In this document: positions 1 through 5,042 of the stretch, piece after piece
How positions within the stretch are numbered: the first letter of the stretch is position 1
Layout of the letters: each line of letters opens with the position of its first letter
Assembly (NCBI GenBank): GCA_964573185.1
Contig: CAZNIQ010000025.1
Span: 1-10,098, forward strand
Direction: 5' to 3'
DNA: 10,098 nucleotides
DNA from: Candidatus Woesearchaeota archaeon
GTDB taxonomy: Archaea; Nanobdellota; Nanobdellia; Nanobdellales; CAZNIQ01
The notes under the pieces: generated by a model
Seen by the model: the letters and a program-made list of their open reading frames with translations, nothing else
Databases searched by the model: none
Told to the model about the DNA's origin: nothing
Translations under genes and position numbers: made by a program

Positions 1-1338
1 TATTCGGTCGTAGATTATTCCATTTTCAACATATTTTTCTTTAAATTCTTCAAATGTTTCAAAGTATTCTGAAATTCTTGTCTCTAAAATGTTTTCATAT
101 ACAGCCCTTTCAATTAATCTTTGATTTACATTTAGCATTTCCGCAATTTCTTTAACAGATTTTCTTGGATATAACCCTATTGCAACCAACTTGGCTTCTT
201 TTCTTTCTTCTCTATTTACAATTTTTCTTCTTAAATATTCTGCTACGACTAAACCTTCTCTTTGTTTTAAAGAATAAGCATATCCTATTTCTGTCAAGAA
301 TTTATAAACATCCTTTTCAGATTTCAGGTATAATCTATACATTACTTTTCCATCATATTCTTTCACTTTGTATATTTCAGATTCTATTCCAAATTCTTTC
401 AATATTTCTTTTATTTCTTCTAAGAATTTAACTAAGTTTTCTTCTAATTCTTTTACTTTTACAAATGTTAAACTTATCTGTAAAGCTGTTTTACCTTTAA
501 CTATTGGCTTTGAACCGTCTGAACCAAATAAACCTGCTAAGAAATTTGCTTTAACCCATTTTGGGCTTTCCTTTAACCATTCTGGTATTCTGAATTCTGC
601 TTTTGTTTTCTCACCAACAGGAGCTCCCAATTTAATTAATAATAATGCAAAAGCTTTTGAGGTAATCTTAATAGAATATTCTTTTCCTTCAGTTTCATAT
701 TCATAACCCCAAGGAGATTTTATCTTTATTTTTCTTTTCCTTTCATAAATTCTTGAAGCTTTAATACTTAATTTTTCTAGATCTCTTCTTAATTCTTCCA
801 ATCCTTCCTTTTCACCGTAGAACCAAACAATATATCTTTCTCTCTTCTTCCCTCTCTCTTCTGTTATTATTCTAGTTATGCATCCATCTCCAATTAGATA
901 ACCTAAAATTCTAGCAAGGATTCCAATTCTTAAATCATTTGATTTCAAAGGTAACAATTTTCTTTCTTTAAGATACTTAATTATTTGTGGGTCATATCTT
1001 TCGAAATCTTTTTCAGTTAAAATTACTTTTTCTTTTGGTTTTTCAAACTCAACACCTTCAAATGGGTAAACAGCTATATACTCTCCTACTTTTAGTTCTT
1101 TAGCTAATTTCCATCCTTCTTTTGTTAAAACTGGATGATCAAAAGATAATTCTAGTTCCCTTCCAGTTTCTGTTTTTATCTTTATTATGAACTCGTCAGA
1201 GGGTCTTTCAGATATAAATAAAATTCTGCTTCTCTTTTCCTTTGTTCTTAACTCTACTTCATTTAATAAAGGTATTAAATCTTTTATTTTAATTCTAAAA
1301 CCTAAATCCGTTAGTACTTCGGTATTTCCAGGCAAGCA
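1..1338 (-). mobile_element. Intein with LAGLIDADG homing-endonuclease domain, inserted in RtcB directly after GFDIN; C-terminal splice junction is outside the window
   Basis: After extein ...GGIGFDIN the sequence continues [14 protein letters not shown] (Cys1 codon 1338..1336, intein block A-like). This is followed by [12 protein letters not shown] (block B-like, TxxH type). Two LAGLIDADG motifs follow: [15 protein letters not shown] (about 883..903) and [14 protein letters not shown] (about 511..543). ENGIIYDRI at the window edge resembles block F. The RtcB motif would normally continue GFDINCGVR. Confidence 0.85.
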
Positions 1339-1626
1339 ATTAATATCAAAGCCTATTCCGCCAGGAGTAATTATTCCTTCATTTAAATCAAAAGCAGCAA
1401 CACCTCCAATTGGAAAACCATAACCTTGGTGTCCATCGGGCATTACGATCATCCATTTTTGAATACCCGGTAATGTAGCAACATTTCTTGCTTGTTCTAA
1501 CGTTTTATCTTCTTGCATTTTCTTAAGTAGTATTTCTGAAGCATATATTCTTGCAGGAACTCTCATTGGGGGCTCTTTTGGTATTTCCCAAATAAGATCA
1601 GAAACTTTTCTCAGCTTAATGTACAT
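1..1626 (-). CDS. rtcB: RNA-splicing ligase RtcB, N-terminal part interrupted by an intein; the rest of the gene lies beyond the left window edge
   Basis: Manual minus-strand translation from ATG 1626..1624 stays open to base 1 (542 codons). It is absent from the ORF track because it runs off the edge. The N-terminus [31 protein letters not shown]...[31 protein letters not shown]...PGGIGFDIN carries the conserved RtcB motifs (PDxHxGYGxPIGG, GGIGFDIN followed by Cys). Confidence 0.9.
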
Positions 1627-1656
1627 AAAAATAACTATGTTATAAACTTTTTAAAG
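1627..1656. promoter_or_regulatory. 30-bp divergent promoter spacer between rtcB (minus) and the methyltransferase fusion gene (plus)
   Basis: The spacer is entirely A/T-rich. The plus-strand ATAAAAATA (about 1625..1633) is centred about 27 nt upstream of ATG 1657. The minus-strand CTTTAAAAAG (complement of about 1648..1657) is centred about 26 nt upstream of ATG 1626. This spacing fits archaeal TATA boxes and leaderless transcripts. No BRE or TSS can be verified. Confidence 0.35.
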
Positions 1657-1704
1657 ATGAGGAGGGGCACACTCTCTGAGAATGATGAGAGGAGCGAGAG
1701 CCGA
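1657..1704 (+). ncRNA. Candidate box C/D sRNA-like element with degenerate terminal boxes, coincident with codons 1-16 of the downstream CDS
   Basis: Layout is ATGAGGA (C, 1 mismatch to RUGAUGA), 12 nt GGGGCACACTCT, CTGA (D', 1676..1679), GAA, TGATGA (C', 1683..1688), 12 nt GAGGAGCGAGAG, CCGA (D variant, 1701..1704). The 12/3/12 spacing is canonical and the internal boxes are perfect, but both terminal boxes are imperfect. The segment is locally GC-rich relative to its surroundings. Confidence 0.4.
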
Positions 1705-2847
1705 ATACTTCTTGTTCGTAAAATAAAAGATAAGGAAGCGTACCCACCAAAAGAAGACTCCTTCTTATTACAAAAATATGTTAAAATTTTTGCTAAAGGA
1801 ATAGTTTTGGATATTGGCACTGGTACTGGAATTCAAGCAATAACAGCAGCTTTAAAATCTAACGTCAAAAGAGTAATAGCCTCTGATATTGATAAAGATG
1901 CATTGATTATTGCAAAGTTTAATTCTGAGCTAAATGGAGTTTATGAAAAGATAATTTTTGTCCAATCCAACTTATTCGAAAGAATTCCAAAAATAAAATA
2001 TGATACTATTATTTTTAATCCCCCATATTTACCTGAGGAAGGAGTAGAGGATTATAAAACAAAACTTTGGACGGTTGGAGGTGAGGAAGGAAATGAACTT
2101 ATCTTAAGGTTTTTAGAAGAAGCTTGGAAATATTTATATAAAAATGGCATTATTCTTTTAGTTTTTTCATCTTTAAGCAATCCTAAAAAGATATTATCTT
2201 TTGCAGAAGAATTAGGATATTCATATAAGCTTTTAGAATCTAAAAGATTTTTCTTTGAAGAAATCTATGTTTACTTATTCAGCAGGTCTCATGATCATCA
2301 TCTTTCAGCACAGGAAACGTTCATCACCGAAGGTTGGCATTCTCATATTTATTTAACAGATAGAAATACTATTATAAAAAAGTTTAAAGAAAATTTAAGG
2401 TTAAACTATGAAAAGGAAAAATATTTTTTATTAAAGCTAAAGGATTTCGATTTTACTCCAAAGATTATAGATTTTGATGATAGCGAAATGAAAATAGAAA
2501 TGGAATATATTAAAGGAAAAACATTGAAGGAAGTTATTAAAAAAGGAAAGTTAACTGTCGATTTAATTAAGGATATTTTGGAGATTTGTTACACGCTAGA
2601 TAAATTGAGAATAGATAAAGGGGAGATGAATAGACCATGGGAACATATAATAATTTCAGATAGAATTGTCTTTATTGATTGGGAGAGAGCTAAAGAAACT
2701 AGAAAGCCTTCTAATGTAACAAATTTTCTACAGTTCTTACATAAAATTAAATTTATTGATATAACAAAAATAAAAGATATTTTAAGGAAATATAAGAAAA
2801 CCTATGATAGAAAGTATATTTTAGAGATAATCAGAAATCTAGGATAA
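1657..2847 (+). CDS. Fusion protein: N-terminal HemK/Mtq2-type (archaeal HemK-related) SAM-dependent methyltransferase plus C-terminal divergent Bud32/RIO-like kinase-fold domain
   Basis: The methyltransferase part (aa ~27-208) has YPPKEDSFLL, VLDIGTGTGIQAI (SAM motif I) and IIFNPPYLP (NPPY, codons 121-124 at 2017..2028), and ends ...FFFEEIYVYLFS like stand-alone archaeal HemK-related proteins. The C-terminal part (aa ~225-396) has GWHSHIYL...TIIKKF, KIEMEYIKGKTLKEVI, RIDKGEMNRPWEHIII and VFIDWE. These align by eye to the Bud32 elements (G-loop, VIIK, MEYIxG, HxDLxxxN, DFG) but with substituted catalytic residues. Confidence 0.75.
   Translation: MRRGTLSENDERSESRILLVRKIKDKEAYPPKEDSFLLQKYVKIFAKGIVLDIGTGTGIQAITAALKSNVKRVIASDIDKDALIIAKFNSELNGVYEKIIFVQSNLFERIPKIKYDTIIFNPPYLPEEGVEDYKTKLWTVGGEEGNELILRFLEEAWKYLYKNGIILLVFSSLSNPKKILSFAEELGYSYKLLESKRFFFEEIYVYLFSRSHDHHLSAQETFITEGWHSHIYLTDRNTIIKKFKENLRLNYEKEKYFLLKLKDFDFTPKIIDFDDSEMKIEMEYIKGKTLKEVIKKGKLTVDLIKDILEICYTLDKLRIDKGEMNRPWEHIIISDRIVFIDWERAKETRKPSNVTNFLQFLHKIKFIDITKIKDILRKYKKTYDRKYILEIIRNLG
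2279..2327 (-). ncRNA. Box C/D sRNA, antisense to and fully inside the fusion CDS at its domain junction
   Basis: Minus-strand layout is GTGATGA (C, 2327..2321), 12 nt ACGTTTCCTGTG, CTGA (D', 2308..2305), AAGA, TGATGA (C', 2300..2295), 12 nt TCATGAGACCTG, CTGA (D, 2282..2279). All four boxes are perfect, both guides are exactly 12 nt, and the segment is a local GC island. Confidence 0.8.
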
Positions 2848-3651
2848 TTTTTCTAGTACTTCTTTTGCAATTTCTTTTATCTTTTCATCTTTTACATTTT
2901 CTAAAATATATTCCCAAACATTTTTTGAAAAATTATAATTAACCAAAATCTTAAGTAAACAATCGTAATACTTTTTATATTTTTGGTATTTTTCACTTTC
3001 TTTTTCTGGTATACTTAAAAGTTTATTTTTGATCTGCTCATATAATTTAAATCCTAGTTTTACGTCTAGTAATCCATTTGGAACAAACAAATCTATTAAT
3101 ACTTCCTCAAAATCTGGAGGTAAGTTAATTTCGTTATAGTCAAATAATATATGCAACAGTTCATGTAGAAATCCGGAAAACTTTTCTTCAACACTTCGTC
3201 TTTCGTTTTTACCAGCTGATTGGAAAATTATATATCTGTCCTTATATACAAGTGCACTTCCAAAAGATATCGTAGGAGAAAGATTATAAACTAAGTAAAC
3301 TTCTACTTCATTAGGGAATTTCTTTATCAAAAAAGTTTCCTTAATTATTTCTAAAGCTTCTTCTATTTTTTCATTATAAAAGCCTTCAAATTTATTTTTC
3401 AATTCTATCAATTCTTCCTTTATTTCCTCAAACCATTCAATTTTATAATCTACTTTTATCTTTTTATCAAGAATTCCTAATAAAAATTCCTTTCCTTTTC
3501 CCTCTAAACATTTAGAACGAAATGTATATACCAACTTTGCTAATTTAAAATCTAGGAATTGAAAAAATAAAGGATCTAGATTTATAATATGTGATCTATA
3601 TAATAATGAAGCCAATTGTGCTTCTTTAGAGACAACTACCTTTACTTTCAT
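2839..3651 (-). CDS. Hypothetical protein with HExxH motif (possible zinc metallopeptidase-like)
   Basis: Intact 270-aa ORF with coding-like K/E/I-rich composition. It contains a single HELLH motif (aa 163-167, 3151..3165) in the context FSGFLHELLHILFDYNE. I recognise no other family signature. The 3' end overlaps the convergent fusion CDS by 9 nt. Confidence 0.6.
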   Translation of the reverse strand: MKVKVVVSKEAQLASLLYRSHIINLDPLFFQFLDFKLAKLVYTFRSKCLEGKGKEFLLGILDKKIKVDYKIEWFEEIKEELIELKNKFEGFYNEKIEEALEIIKETFLIKKFPNEVEVYLVYNLSPTISFGSALVYKDRYIIFQSAGKNERRSVEEKFSGFLHELLHILFDYNEINLPPDFEEVLIDLFVPNGLLDVKLGFKLYEQIKNKLLSIPEKESEKYQKYKKYYDCLLKILVNYNFSKNVWEYILENVKDEKIKEIAKEVLEKLS

Positions 3652-3689: not shown

Positions 3690-3738
3690 TCAGGAGCTTA
3701 GAGGCTCATCAATAATCAGCTCCGCCTGAAATCATCAT
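3690..3738 (-). ncRNA. Box C/D sRNA (intergenic)
   Basis: Minus-strand layout is ATGATGA (C, 3738..3732), 12 nt TTTCAGGCGGAG, CTGA (D', 3719..3716), TTAT, TGATGA (C', 3711..3706), 12 nt GCCTCTAAGCTC, CTGA (D, 3693..3690). The flanks (AUUUUAA 5' and ACAAAAU 3') can form a short terminal stem. It is the GC-rich island of an otherwise A/T intergenic region. Confidence 0.85.
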
Positions 3739-4522: not shown

Positions 4523-5042
4523 AATTTAATACCTCTGGATGAAAAGTGAAACCATAAATCTCTCTGTTTTTTACCTTAAAAATCGCTGGTTCATCTTTAA
4601 CATATCCTAAAATTTCAAAATTTTCGCTTAAAACAGGATACCTCACTATTAAAAAATAAGCTCTAAATTTGCCAAAAATAGAATTTACATCATAAACTCC
4701 AATAAATCCTTTTTTCTTTAGTTTACCCCCAAATGTTAATGCTATTATTTGAGATCCTGCACCTACTCCTATCACTTTCTTATTCGTATTTTTAATCCAT
4801 TTGAACTTATCTAAATAGTTTAAATATTCAAAATCTTTAATAGCAGTTCCAGATAAAATAATTACATCCTCTTTCGGTTCTTTCTCCAATTCTTTATAAT
4901 GAATTACTTTAACATTTCCTTTTTCTTTAAAAATGTCTACTAAAGGTCCTACAAACTCTTCTTCATGCAACTTATATTTACATAAAGAAATTATCAGGAT
5001 CGAGAGTCCCTCATCATTTTCAGAGTGGGATAACGTCATCAT
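4485..5042 (-). CDS. Class-I glutamine amidotransferase-like protein (GuaA subunit A-like fold) lacking the nucleophile cysteine
   Basis: ILIISL (beta-1-like), VIILSG, VIGVGAGSQIIALTFGG in place of the GxCxGxQ nucleophile elbow, and YGFTFHPEV (His/Glu of the triad). The only canonical in-frame starts are ATG 5042 or 5039, both inside the C box of the overlapping sRNA. Confidence 0.65.
   Translation of the reverse strand: MMTLSHSENDEGLSILIISLCKYKLHEEEFVGPLVDIFKEKGNVKVIHYKELEKEPKEDVIILSGTAIKDFEYLNYLDKFKWIKNTNKKVIGVGAGSQIIALTFGGKLKKKGFIGVYDVNSIFGKFRAYFLIVRYPVLSENFEILGYVKDEPAIFKVKNREIYGFTFHPEVLNSKLLLEILSQNF
4994..5042 (-). ncRNA. Box C/D sRNA coincident with codons 1-17 of the GATase-like CDS
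   Basis: Minus-strand layout is ATGATGA (C, 5042..5036), 12 nt CGTTATCCCACT, CTGA (D', 5023..5020), AAA, TGATGA (C', 5016..5011), 13 nt GGGACTCTCGATC, CTGA (D, 4997..4994). All four boxes are perfect and the segment is a GC-rich island. A TATA-like ATTTTTAAA (complement of 5067..5075) sits about 29 nt upstream of the C box. Confidence 0.8.

Follow-up and report, generated by a model that had tools for sequence, protein, structure and literature searches.

The first 48 nt of a gene for a HemK2/Mtq2-family protein methyltransferase fused to a Bud32-like kinase domain, at positions 1657-1704 (+) of the window (the whole 10,098-nt stretch of DNA that we analysed, contig C25), have the layout of a complete archaeal C/D box sRNA in which the AUG of box C serves as the start codon of the gene. 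The two terminal boxes of this unit each differ from the consensus at one position, the two positions are partners in a single k-turn base pair, and the substitution in box D removes a stop codon from the reading frame. On the strength of its sequence, we put at roughly 0.55 the probability that the element is a live C/D unit that shares its 5′ end with a leaderless mRNA.

The window belongs to a metagenome-assembled genome (G000; 593 kb in 37 contigs, 30% G+C) of a tiny heat-loving archaeon. Among the species set that we compared, G000 is the sole member of its own family; its relatives at the level of the order include Nanopusillus-type genomes and a 490,885-bp genome (G002) that we take to be that of Nanoarchaeum equitans. 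The gene and the parts of the element at its start are the following:

1657-2847 (+): methyltransferase-kinase ORF, 396 aa, with a HemK2/Mtq2-family protein methyltransferase (about aa 25-207) and a weak Bud32-like kinase domain (about aa 253-390)
1657-1663 (+): box C variant AUGAGGA, with G for U at position 5; the ORF has no other usable start codon than its AUG
1664-1675 (+): D′ guide GGGGCACACUCU, codons 3-7
1676-1679 (+): box D′, CUGA, canonical
1680-1682 (+): linker GAA, 3 nt
1683-1688 (+): box C′, UGAUGA, canonical
1689-1700 (+): D guide GAGGAGCGAGAG, codons 11-15
1701-1704 (+): box D variant CCGA, the C of which pairs with the variant G of box C; codon 16 is CGA (Arg)

Residues 25-207 of the protein match the HemK2/Mtq2 models NF011529 (175.4 bits, cut-off 162) and TIGR00537 (119.4 bits, cut-off 87), and the C-terminal Bud32-like domain, residues 253-390, scores 33.7 bits, below its cut-off of 125. 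Fusions of HemK2/Mtq2 to a Bud32-like domain are widespread in DPANN archaea, with hundreds of fused homologues; N. equitans and the Nanopusillus-type family have the two parts in separate, unlinked genes. The ATG at 1657 is the first start codon after the in-frame stop that lies upstream of the 396-aa ORF, and the next in-frame ATG, GTG or TTG falls inside SAM-binding methyltransferase motif I (VLDIGTGTG), so that the ATG at 1657 is the only usable start. The original prediction, according to which the element makes up codons 1-16 (read as MRRGTLSENDERSESR) and supplies the only start codon of the gene, is thus borne out. It had also held that the element adds an extension of about 17 aa, stand-alone homologues of the methyltransferase starting shortly before the YEPAED motif. 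This is so in N. equitans and in distant DPANN archaea, whose proteins start 2-4 residues before Y-x-P-x-ED, but not in Nanopusillus-type orthologues, whose ~22 residues ahead of that motif align with residues 17-28 of the 396-aa protein; relative to these members of the same order, the element adds only about 6 residues. No SENDE-type box footprint was seen in the protein N-termini that we inspected from the Nanopusillus-type orthologues, which start MDFEYVKHND, and a search of the JGI metagenomes returned only stand-alone kinase and methyltransferase homologues, at no more than 54% identity, and no closer relatives.

On the DNA level, the element reads ATGAGGA, GGGGCACACTCT, CTGA, GAA, TGATGA, GAGGAGCGAGAG and CCGA from 1657 to 1704, i.e. 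AUGAGGA-12-CUGA-GAA-UGAUGA-12-CCGA, and this is exactly the 12/3/12 C/D-like element that had been reported at the start of the ORF. The 12/3/12 layout is the commonest among the sRNAs of G000 (26 of 72), and the guides have the length of about 12 nt and the fixed spacing that mark archaeal C/D sRNAs. Both boxes of the internal C′/D′ motif are canonical and the linker between them is 3 nt long, as in a k-loop. The terminal pair AUGAGGA/CCGA keeps both GA dinucleotides and is predicted to form a k-turn with G-C at 3b.3n and G-C at 4b-4n; the eight G and A residues that make up the tandem G.A pairs in the four boxes are all intact. Fibrillarin, Nop5 and L7Ae are encoded in G000.

To place the element among the sRNAs of its genome, we searched G000 with two patterns. 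The strict one (RTGATGA-N(10-14)-CTGA-N(2-8)-TGATGA-N(10-14)-CTGA) retrieved 46 fully canonical units. A relaxed version, in which any base is allowed at position 5 of box C, at position 4 of box C′ and at position 2 of boxes D and D′, retrieved 72 matches from the 593-kb genome, one of them the element at 1657, and 0 from the reversed genome; the analytic expectation from base composition is ~0.0015 chance matches per genome. These counts agree with the earlier judgement that the arrangement is unlikely to have arisen by chance. That judgement had been based on two occurrences in the window; we count four C/D units in it, and the pair of gene-start units, at 1657 and 5042, stands. In both members of the pair, as had been pointed out, the peptide SENDE is encoded by the succession of box D′, linker and box C′. 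The three units that accompany the element are:

2279-2327 (-): antisense sRNA, fully canonical, inside the methyltransferase-kinase ORF at the interdomain linker; the sense strand encodes SRSHDHHLSAQETFITEGW
3690-3738 (-): intergenic sRNA, canonical; each guide is one base different from that of its sister-genome counterpart (L090:7175-7223)
4994-5042 (-): GATase-start unit, canonical, forming codons 1-16 of a 185-aa glutamine amidotransferase ORF (MMTLSHSENDEGLSIL...); the frame stays open because its D guide is 13 nt long

The composition of the element sets it apart from the rest of G000. Its 48 nt have a G+C content of 56%, the top value among the 72 sRNAs and one reached by only 0.65% of the 48-nt windows of the genome, and its GC3 is 0.69 (genome, 0.21), the joint highest among 351 long ORFs. 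Its codons include the rare CGA (1.2% of Arg), CTC (2.2% of Leu), GGC (6.4% of Gly) and AGC (6.6% of Ser). Because G+C, GC3 and codon choice are all extreme, we take the sequence to have been shaped by an RNA-level constraint or an RNA origin and not by codon usage. Another long ORF of G000, with the start ATGAAATCCGGAGAGCCGTCTATGATGG, equals the element in GC3 over its first 16 codons (0.69) and contains the motifs TGATGG, TGAAGA and CTGA; it may be a further sRNA-derived gene start.

Sequence models score the unit weakly. Rfam sR33 gives the element 18.3 bits with a gathering score of 37, and the three canonical units of the window also stay below threshold (e.g. 29.9 versus 45, for the unit at 2279-2327 (-), the best Rfam C/D match in the window). 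With a profile HMM built from the canonical sRNAs of the genome, the element scores 10.4 bits (E 0.19), compared with 7.5 for the best reversed control. The minimum free energy of the element is like that of shuffled sequences (z = -0.44), i.e. there is no significant canonical fold, which is uninformative in that it is what is expected of a protein-dependent k-turn RNA. Since both the curated and the genome-specific models score the unit weakly, our call rests on its architecture, on covariation and on the orthologue.

In a C/D k-turn, RUGAUGA and CUGA form the pairs G.A and A.G, then U.U at position 3b.3n, and then G-C. The two variant positions of the element, in the nomenclature of McPhee et al. 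2014 (PMC4382518), are 3b (nucleotide 5 of box C, U to G) and 3n (nucleotide 2 of box D, U to C), and together they turn U.U into a Watson-Crick G-C pair. The terminal boxes had been described as decayed; this was mistaken, as the substitutions affect the two partners of one base pair and are not independent decay. The 72 units have 144 box pairs, and wherever 3n in these is a base other than U (20 cases), 3b is not U either (Fisher 2e-18). Among the combinations free of U, A.A occurs 14 times, A.G three times and G-C twice; position 2 of box D is C in just two of the 144 pairs, and its partner is G both times.

The reading frame bears directly on these substitutions. Counted from the AUG of box C, a canonical CUGA in the 12/3/12 layout would make codon 16 UGA, and all 12/3/12 units with CTGA do stop after 15 codons; CCGA makes this codon CGA (Arg). 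Both G-C cases occur in ORF-start sRNAs, at exactly the box where U would give an in-frame UGA. Other escapes from the in-frame stop are the 13-nt D guide of the unit at 5042 and the CAGA of the unit at C15:12962. The change in box D, then, is required by coding, and the change in its box C partner, which coding does not require, appears to restore pairing. The second G-C case is the C′/D′ pair (UGAGGA/CCGA) of a unit at a flippase gene start, C15:12881-12930 (-), where a 13-nt D′ guide would place the UGA of a canonical box D′ in frame. A k-turn of this kind is known from human U4, in which 3b.3n is G-C; it does not fold in metal ions and folds upon binding of an L7Ae-class protein (McPhee 2014, PMC4382518). 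The U4 snRNA 5′ stem-loop resembles the element at 1657 in having tandem G.A pairs followed by G-C at 3b.3n, but it belongs to another class of RNA in another domain of life, and only the core of the k-turn is alike.

The only close orthologue of the gene (P0004, 87% identical), in the sister genome GCA_054017035.1, also opens with a C/D unit (L090:6001-6048). It starts ATGAAGA-GAAGGGTCTTAG-CTGA-AAA-TGATGA-GAAGAGCGGGTT-CAGA and shares both the 12/3/12 layout and the position at the gene start, with A.A at 3b.3n and AGA as codon 16. Between the two orthologues, a single pair, 0 of 19 fixed box positions have changed, whereas the guides and linker have changed at 14 of 27 positions (Fisher 1.6e-4). 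Nucleotide identity over the gene body is 87%, with differences at 37% of four-fold degenerate sites. The peptide encoded between the boxes is not conserved. Fixed boxes with freely varying guides and interbox peptide are the reverse of what the original prediction had named as evidence against itself, namely boxes that vary freely within a conserved amino-acid sequence. It had left the choice between a functional non-canonical k-turn and a fossil sRNA gene turned coding leader; the covarying change from U.U to G-C, the A.A of the orthologue and the unchanged boxes favour the first of these.

The same conservation of the boxes in this one pair of orthologues would also be seen after replacement of one sRNA cassette by another, a possibility raised by the finding that the D′ guide is only 3/12 identical between them and that the non-box positions of codons 1-20 differ at 59%, above the neutral proxy. 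The upstream neighbour of the gene differs as well, being RtcB in G000 and RNA 3′-phosphate cyclase in L090. In the two control sRNAs common to both loci, at 2279-2327 (-) and 3690-3738 (-), the guides are identical or differ by one base: both guides of the former are 100% identical in the sister genome (L090:6623-6671). The sister counterpart of the latter (L090:7175-7223) overlaps the 3′ end of the methyltransferase gene, because a 270-aa ORF that occupies 2839-3651 in the window is absent there.

SSU and LSU rRNA were not found in the G000 assembly, and the 16S and 23S rRNAs of nine relatives from the order were used as targets in place of its own. We scored guides by uninterrupted stretches of pairing with trimmed rRNAs, shuffled guides serving as the null; scoring by total pairs including flanks was dropped, as it did not separate real guides from noise. 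Runs of at least 10 nt were obtained for 28% of canonical guides and for 4.7% of shuffled guides. The D′ guide of the element forms 10 contiguous Watson-Crick pairs with N. equitans 23S rRNA near 675-685 (GAGUGUGCCC; site GGAGUGUGCCC), with an extra G.U at position 1 and with U opposite guide position 5. The GGAGU part of this site is conserved in the order and the remainder is variable among the relatives. The element is the only intact unit of G000 with this 23S-directed guide. A canonical sRNA of a relative (G015) has a D guide that shares GCACACUC with the D′ guide of the element, in the same register. At L072 about 1440-1560 (-), on contig C34 of that genome, two C/D sRNAs lie in tandem and have one nucleotide in common, the A of CUGA/AUGAUGA; their internal boxes are degenerate (CGGA/UGAAGA and CAGA/UGAAGA), and the D guide of the first one carries GCACACUC. 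Two exact matches to GGCACACTC outside the rRNA of N. equitans, considered as an orthologous guide, were rejected as they are not C/D units, and among 20 relatives in the order we found no guide fitted to the relative's own 23S rRNA, a match in G009 again not being a C/D unit.

For the D guide, no convincing target was found in the rRNAs of the nine relatives (best run, 7 nt), and no tRNA targets were found for either guide. The D guide of the sister unit, GAAGAGCGGGUU, pairs over 9-11 nt with 16S rRNA at about position 1255, a site conserved in all relatives from the order, and the D guide of the element mismatches this site at positions 1, 2 and 4. As its D guide has neither an rRNA nor a tRNA target, the unit at 1657 would be a single-guide sRNA at best, a status that it would share with most sRNAs that overlap the 5′ ends of ORFs in Pyrobaculum.

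Two promoter-like sequences lie upstream of the element:

1625-1634 (+): box-A/TATA-like A/T-rich stretch ATAAAAATAA, about 23-32 nt upstream of box C, a near match only
1650-1655 (-): TTTAAA box A that abuts box C and is placed for the divergent RtcB gene (start codon 1626, minus strand)

We infer that ATAAAAATAA is the promoter of a transcript starting at or just before the AUG and that the TTTAAA at 1650-1655 (-) drives RtcB. A TTTAAA-type box A (TT[TA]A[TA]A) begins 26-36 nt upstream of box C in 34 of the 72 sRNAs, about half of them, with a peak at -30 to -25; a start some 30 nt ahead of box C matches the promoter geometry of N. equitans (box A consensus and a distance of 26 nt; Randau 2012, PMC3491384). 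The 30-bp spacer between the RtcB and methyltransferase genes (1627-1656), in which the box A of each gene abuts the start codon of the other, seems to hold two interleaved promoters, so that both mRNAs would be nearly leaderless. The gene for the RtcB tRNA-splicing ligase, at 1-1626 (-), contains an intein that has a LAGLIDADG homing-endonuclease domain (Pfam), and its ORF runs off the window.

The element is one of several units placed in this way. In eight of the 72 units, the AUG or GUG of box C opens an ORF of more than 150 aa with little or no open frame upstream, and in six of the eight the ORF encodes clear domains, i.e. those of the HemK2-kinase, the GATase, a polysaccharide flippase, a GCD14/Trm61-like tRNA methyltransferase, a family-4 UDG and a tRNA-binding-domain protein. 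The sRNA leader of the GATase gene is present only in G000: the sister orthologue is without it and starts MYITIISLCKYK, and at the GATase gene of a metagenome relative (L118/L119) there is another sRNA, with the ATG of a C′ box as the start codon. Because the GATase leaders differ or are absent among relatives, the turnover of gene-start sRNA units appears to be rapid, which fits Randau's "mobile C/D box sRNAs". At about 12440-12500 (-) of contig C10 (L096: about 1440-1501), an M16 peptidase gene starts ATGATGA-AAGGGCACACTG-CTGA-AAA-TGGTAT; this unit is half-decayed, having lost C′ and D, and its D′ guide resembles that of the element, with GGGCACACU shifted by one base, so that it is probably a fossil of the same guide family. 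On contig C15 (L091), divergent flippase and GCD14/Trm61-like genes each open with a C/D unit, at 12881-12930 (-) and 12962-13009 (+); the two units are 31 bp apart and have two TTTAAA boxes between them.

If the preferred reading of the element as a live unit is right, events may proceed as follows. Transcription would probably begin at box C or a few bases ahead of it and give a leaderless mRNA. Some of the transcripts would be bound by L7Ae at the terminal C/D k-turn (G.A, A.G, G-C at 3b.3n, G-C) and at the internal C′/D′ k-loop; Nop5 and fibrillarin would assemble next, and RNA past box D would be trimmed to leave a guide RNA of ~50 nt. The D′ guide would most likely direct 2′-O-methylation of a U within the 23S rRNA element GGAGU, the D guide being an orphan. 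Transcripts that escape assembly would be translated from the AUG of box C, the boxes and guides then being read as the N-terminal tag MRRGTLSENDERSESR. Since the start codon lies inside the k-turn and would be removed by excision, RNP assembly and translation would be mutually exclusive for any one transcript.

The best-surviving alternative, an improbable one in our estimate though a real contender, is that the element is a recent relic. A rearrangement would have put an sRNA gene in front of the methyltransferase gene and so donated the promoter and the start codon, and the RNA function would since have been lost or be in the course of being lost; the boxes would look intact either because little time has passed since then or because a new cassette arrived in each lineage. 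Such a history would account for a D guide that does not match the conserved 16S site kept in the sister, for unrelated D′ guides in orthologues whose upstream neighbours (RtcB and RNA 3′-phosphate cyclase) also differ, for the half-decayed unit with a similar D′ guide at the M16 peptidase start, for a GATase leader that is confined to G000 and matched by a different sRNA in another relative, and for the weak HMM and Rfam scores. It would also agree with the 5′ overlaps in Pyrobaculum, in which coding overrides guide function (Lui 2018, PMC6009581). It sits less well with the paired changes in the terminal boxes, of which coding explains the one in box D but not its counterpart in box C, the more so as the orthologue has a matched pair of its own. 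The tandem G.A pairs, moreover, retain all eight G and A residues, no box position out of 19 has changed when neutral sites have diverged by 37%, the rare GC-rich codons have not been replaced by the usual AT-rich ones, and no other intact unit of G000 carries this 23S-directed guide.

Considerably less probable is an operator without remaining guide function, in which the k-turn and k-loop would serve as a site for L7Ae or the full RNP that masks the 5′-terminal AUG, so that output of the Mtq2-kinase protein would depend on the supply of unbound RNP proteins. The pattern of conserved boxes with both guides free to change is what such an operator would leave; a G-C 3b.3n k-turn that stays unfolded without protein is what a protein-operated switch would be expected to have, and the AUG inside box C is the element of an L7Ae switch that is seen at 1657. 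L7Ae is known to repress mRNAs through k-turns at or near start codons (Daume 2017, PMC5539422), and Lui 2018 (PMC6009581) discusses the same possibility. A lone k-turn would suffice for this purpose, however, and yet the exact 12/3/12 spacing is kept in both orthologues; the D′ guide has its 10-nt rRNA match, and the arrangement is common to about eight unrelated genes, which speaks against a regulon-specific operator. Chance resemblance within ordinary coding sequence, favoured by the weak sequence-profile scores, is highly improbable in view of the 72 matches against 0 in the reversed genome (~0.0015 expected), the covarying pair, the identical architecture of the orthologue, and a G+C content and codon usage that are extreme for G000.

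A live unit of the kind that we favour would have close counterparts in known systems. Tripp et al. 2017 (Mol Microbiol 103:151) reportedly found, in six archaea, C/D sRNA genes that overlap ORF 5′ ends in the sense direction. [quoted passage not shown] 2018, NAR 46:5678, PMC6009581). The element at 1657 shares with these overlaps the mostly orphan guides, the co-transcription that we propose and the idea of competition. It differs in that the initiation codon in Pyrobaculum lies in the C′ box or the D guide, whereas the element uses the AUG of box C and has all of its boxes and guides translated, and in that its reading frame appears to have forced a compensated change in the k-turn pair.

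The N. equitans sRNAs 1-26 are ~50 nt long, with 12-nt guides, a 3-4 nt linker and unpaired termini; they are verified by RNA-Seq, UGAAGA/CAGA variants are frequent among them and sRNA3 has a CCGA D′ box (Randau 2012, Genome Biol 13:R63, PMC3491384). Most of them overlap mRNAs, several adjoin methyltransferase genes, and they sit at the borders of rearrangements and split genes (Randau 2012, PMC3491384). The units of G000 are alike in their compact build, with 12-nt guides and a short linker, and in their box variants. In the six of these 26 sRNAs (Additional file 2 of that study) that we read in frame from box C, a stop occurs in the first 20 codons, so that none of the six opens a gene; in the element at 1657, by contrast, the whole unit makes up codons 1-16, box C provides the start codon and the terminal 3b.3n pair is G-C.

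Control of archaeal mRNAs by L7Ae through k-turns near start codons has been described (Daume et al. 2017, mBio, PMC5539422; Huang et al. 2019, RNA, PMC6298567). The element is similar in having a k-turn at the translation start, with a sequence that is predicted to need protein to fold. The known cases, however, are single k-turns in 5′ UTRs that bear a Shine-Dalgarno sequence or just after the start codon, whereas the element is a complete C/D and C′/D′ unit around a probably leaderless AUG. Sense overlaps of sRNAs with ORF 5′ ends are thus already published; a start codon in box C, translation of the whole unit and a compensated k-turn change driven by the reading frame appear to be absent from the papers that we consulted.

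At the element, one 48-nt sequence is subject to two codes, i.e. the k-turn and spacing rules of a guide RNP and an ORF that begins at the first base of the RNA, and a molecular compromise between them can be read from the boxes: the U of box D would give a stop and is replaced, and its partner in box C changes too. The locus, a natural case that is easy to mutate, lends itself to tests of two questions raised for Pyrobaculum and Sulfolobus, namely whether excision of an sRNA competes with translation of the same transcript and whether L7Ae-class proteins control leaderless mRNAs. For annotation, it illustrates that C/D finders which expect canonical boxes, and gene callers which distrust GC-rich leaders with rare codons, mis-handle such DPANN loci.

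A broader proposal, which we offer tentatively and consider doubtful as a whole, is that the C/D sRNA genes of this lineage act as portable cassettes of promoter and start codon that are captured as the 5′ ends of genes after rearrangements. A captured unit would persist as a translated guide RNA, its k-turn pair reshaped to the frame (U.U to G-C or A.A, with the in-frame UGA removed) and its RNP assembly competing with leaderless translation. Behind this proposal stand the gene-start position of about eight of the 72 units, the different sRNAs at the same gene in relatives and the decayed copies. Given such competition, expression of several housekeeping genes would depend on how much methylation-RNP protein is available. 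If cassette capture is true, it would extend the idea, put forward earlier, that the fragmented genomes of the Nanoarchaeota are shaped by mobile C/D sRNAs.
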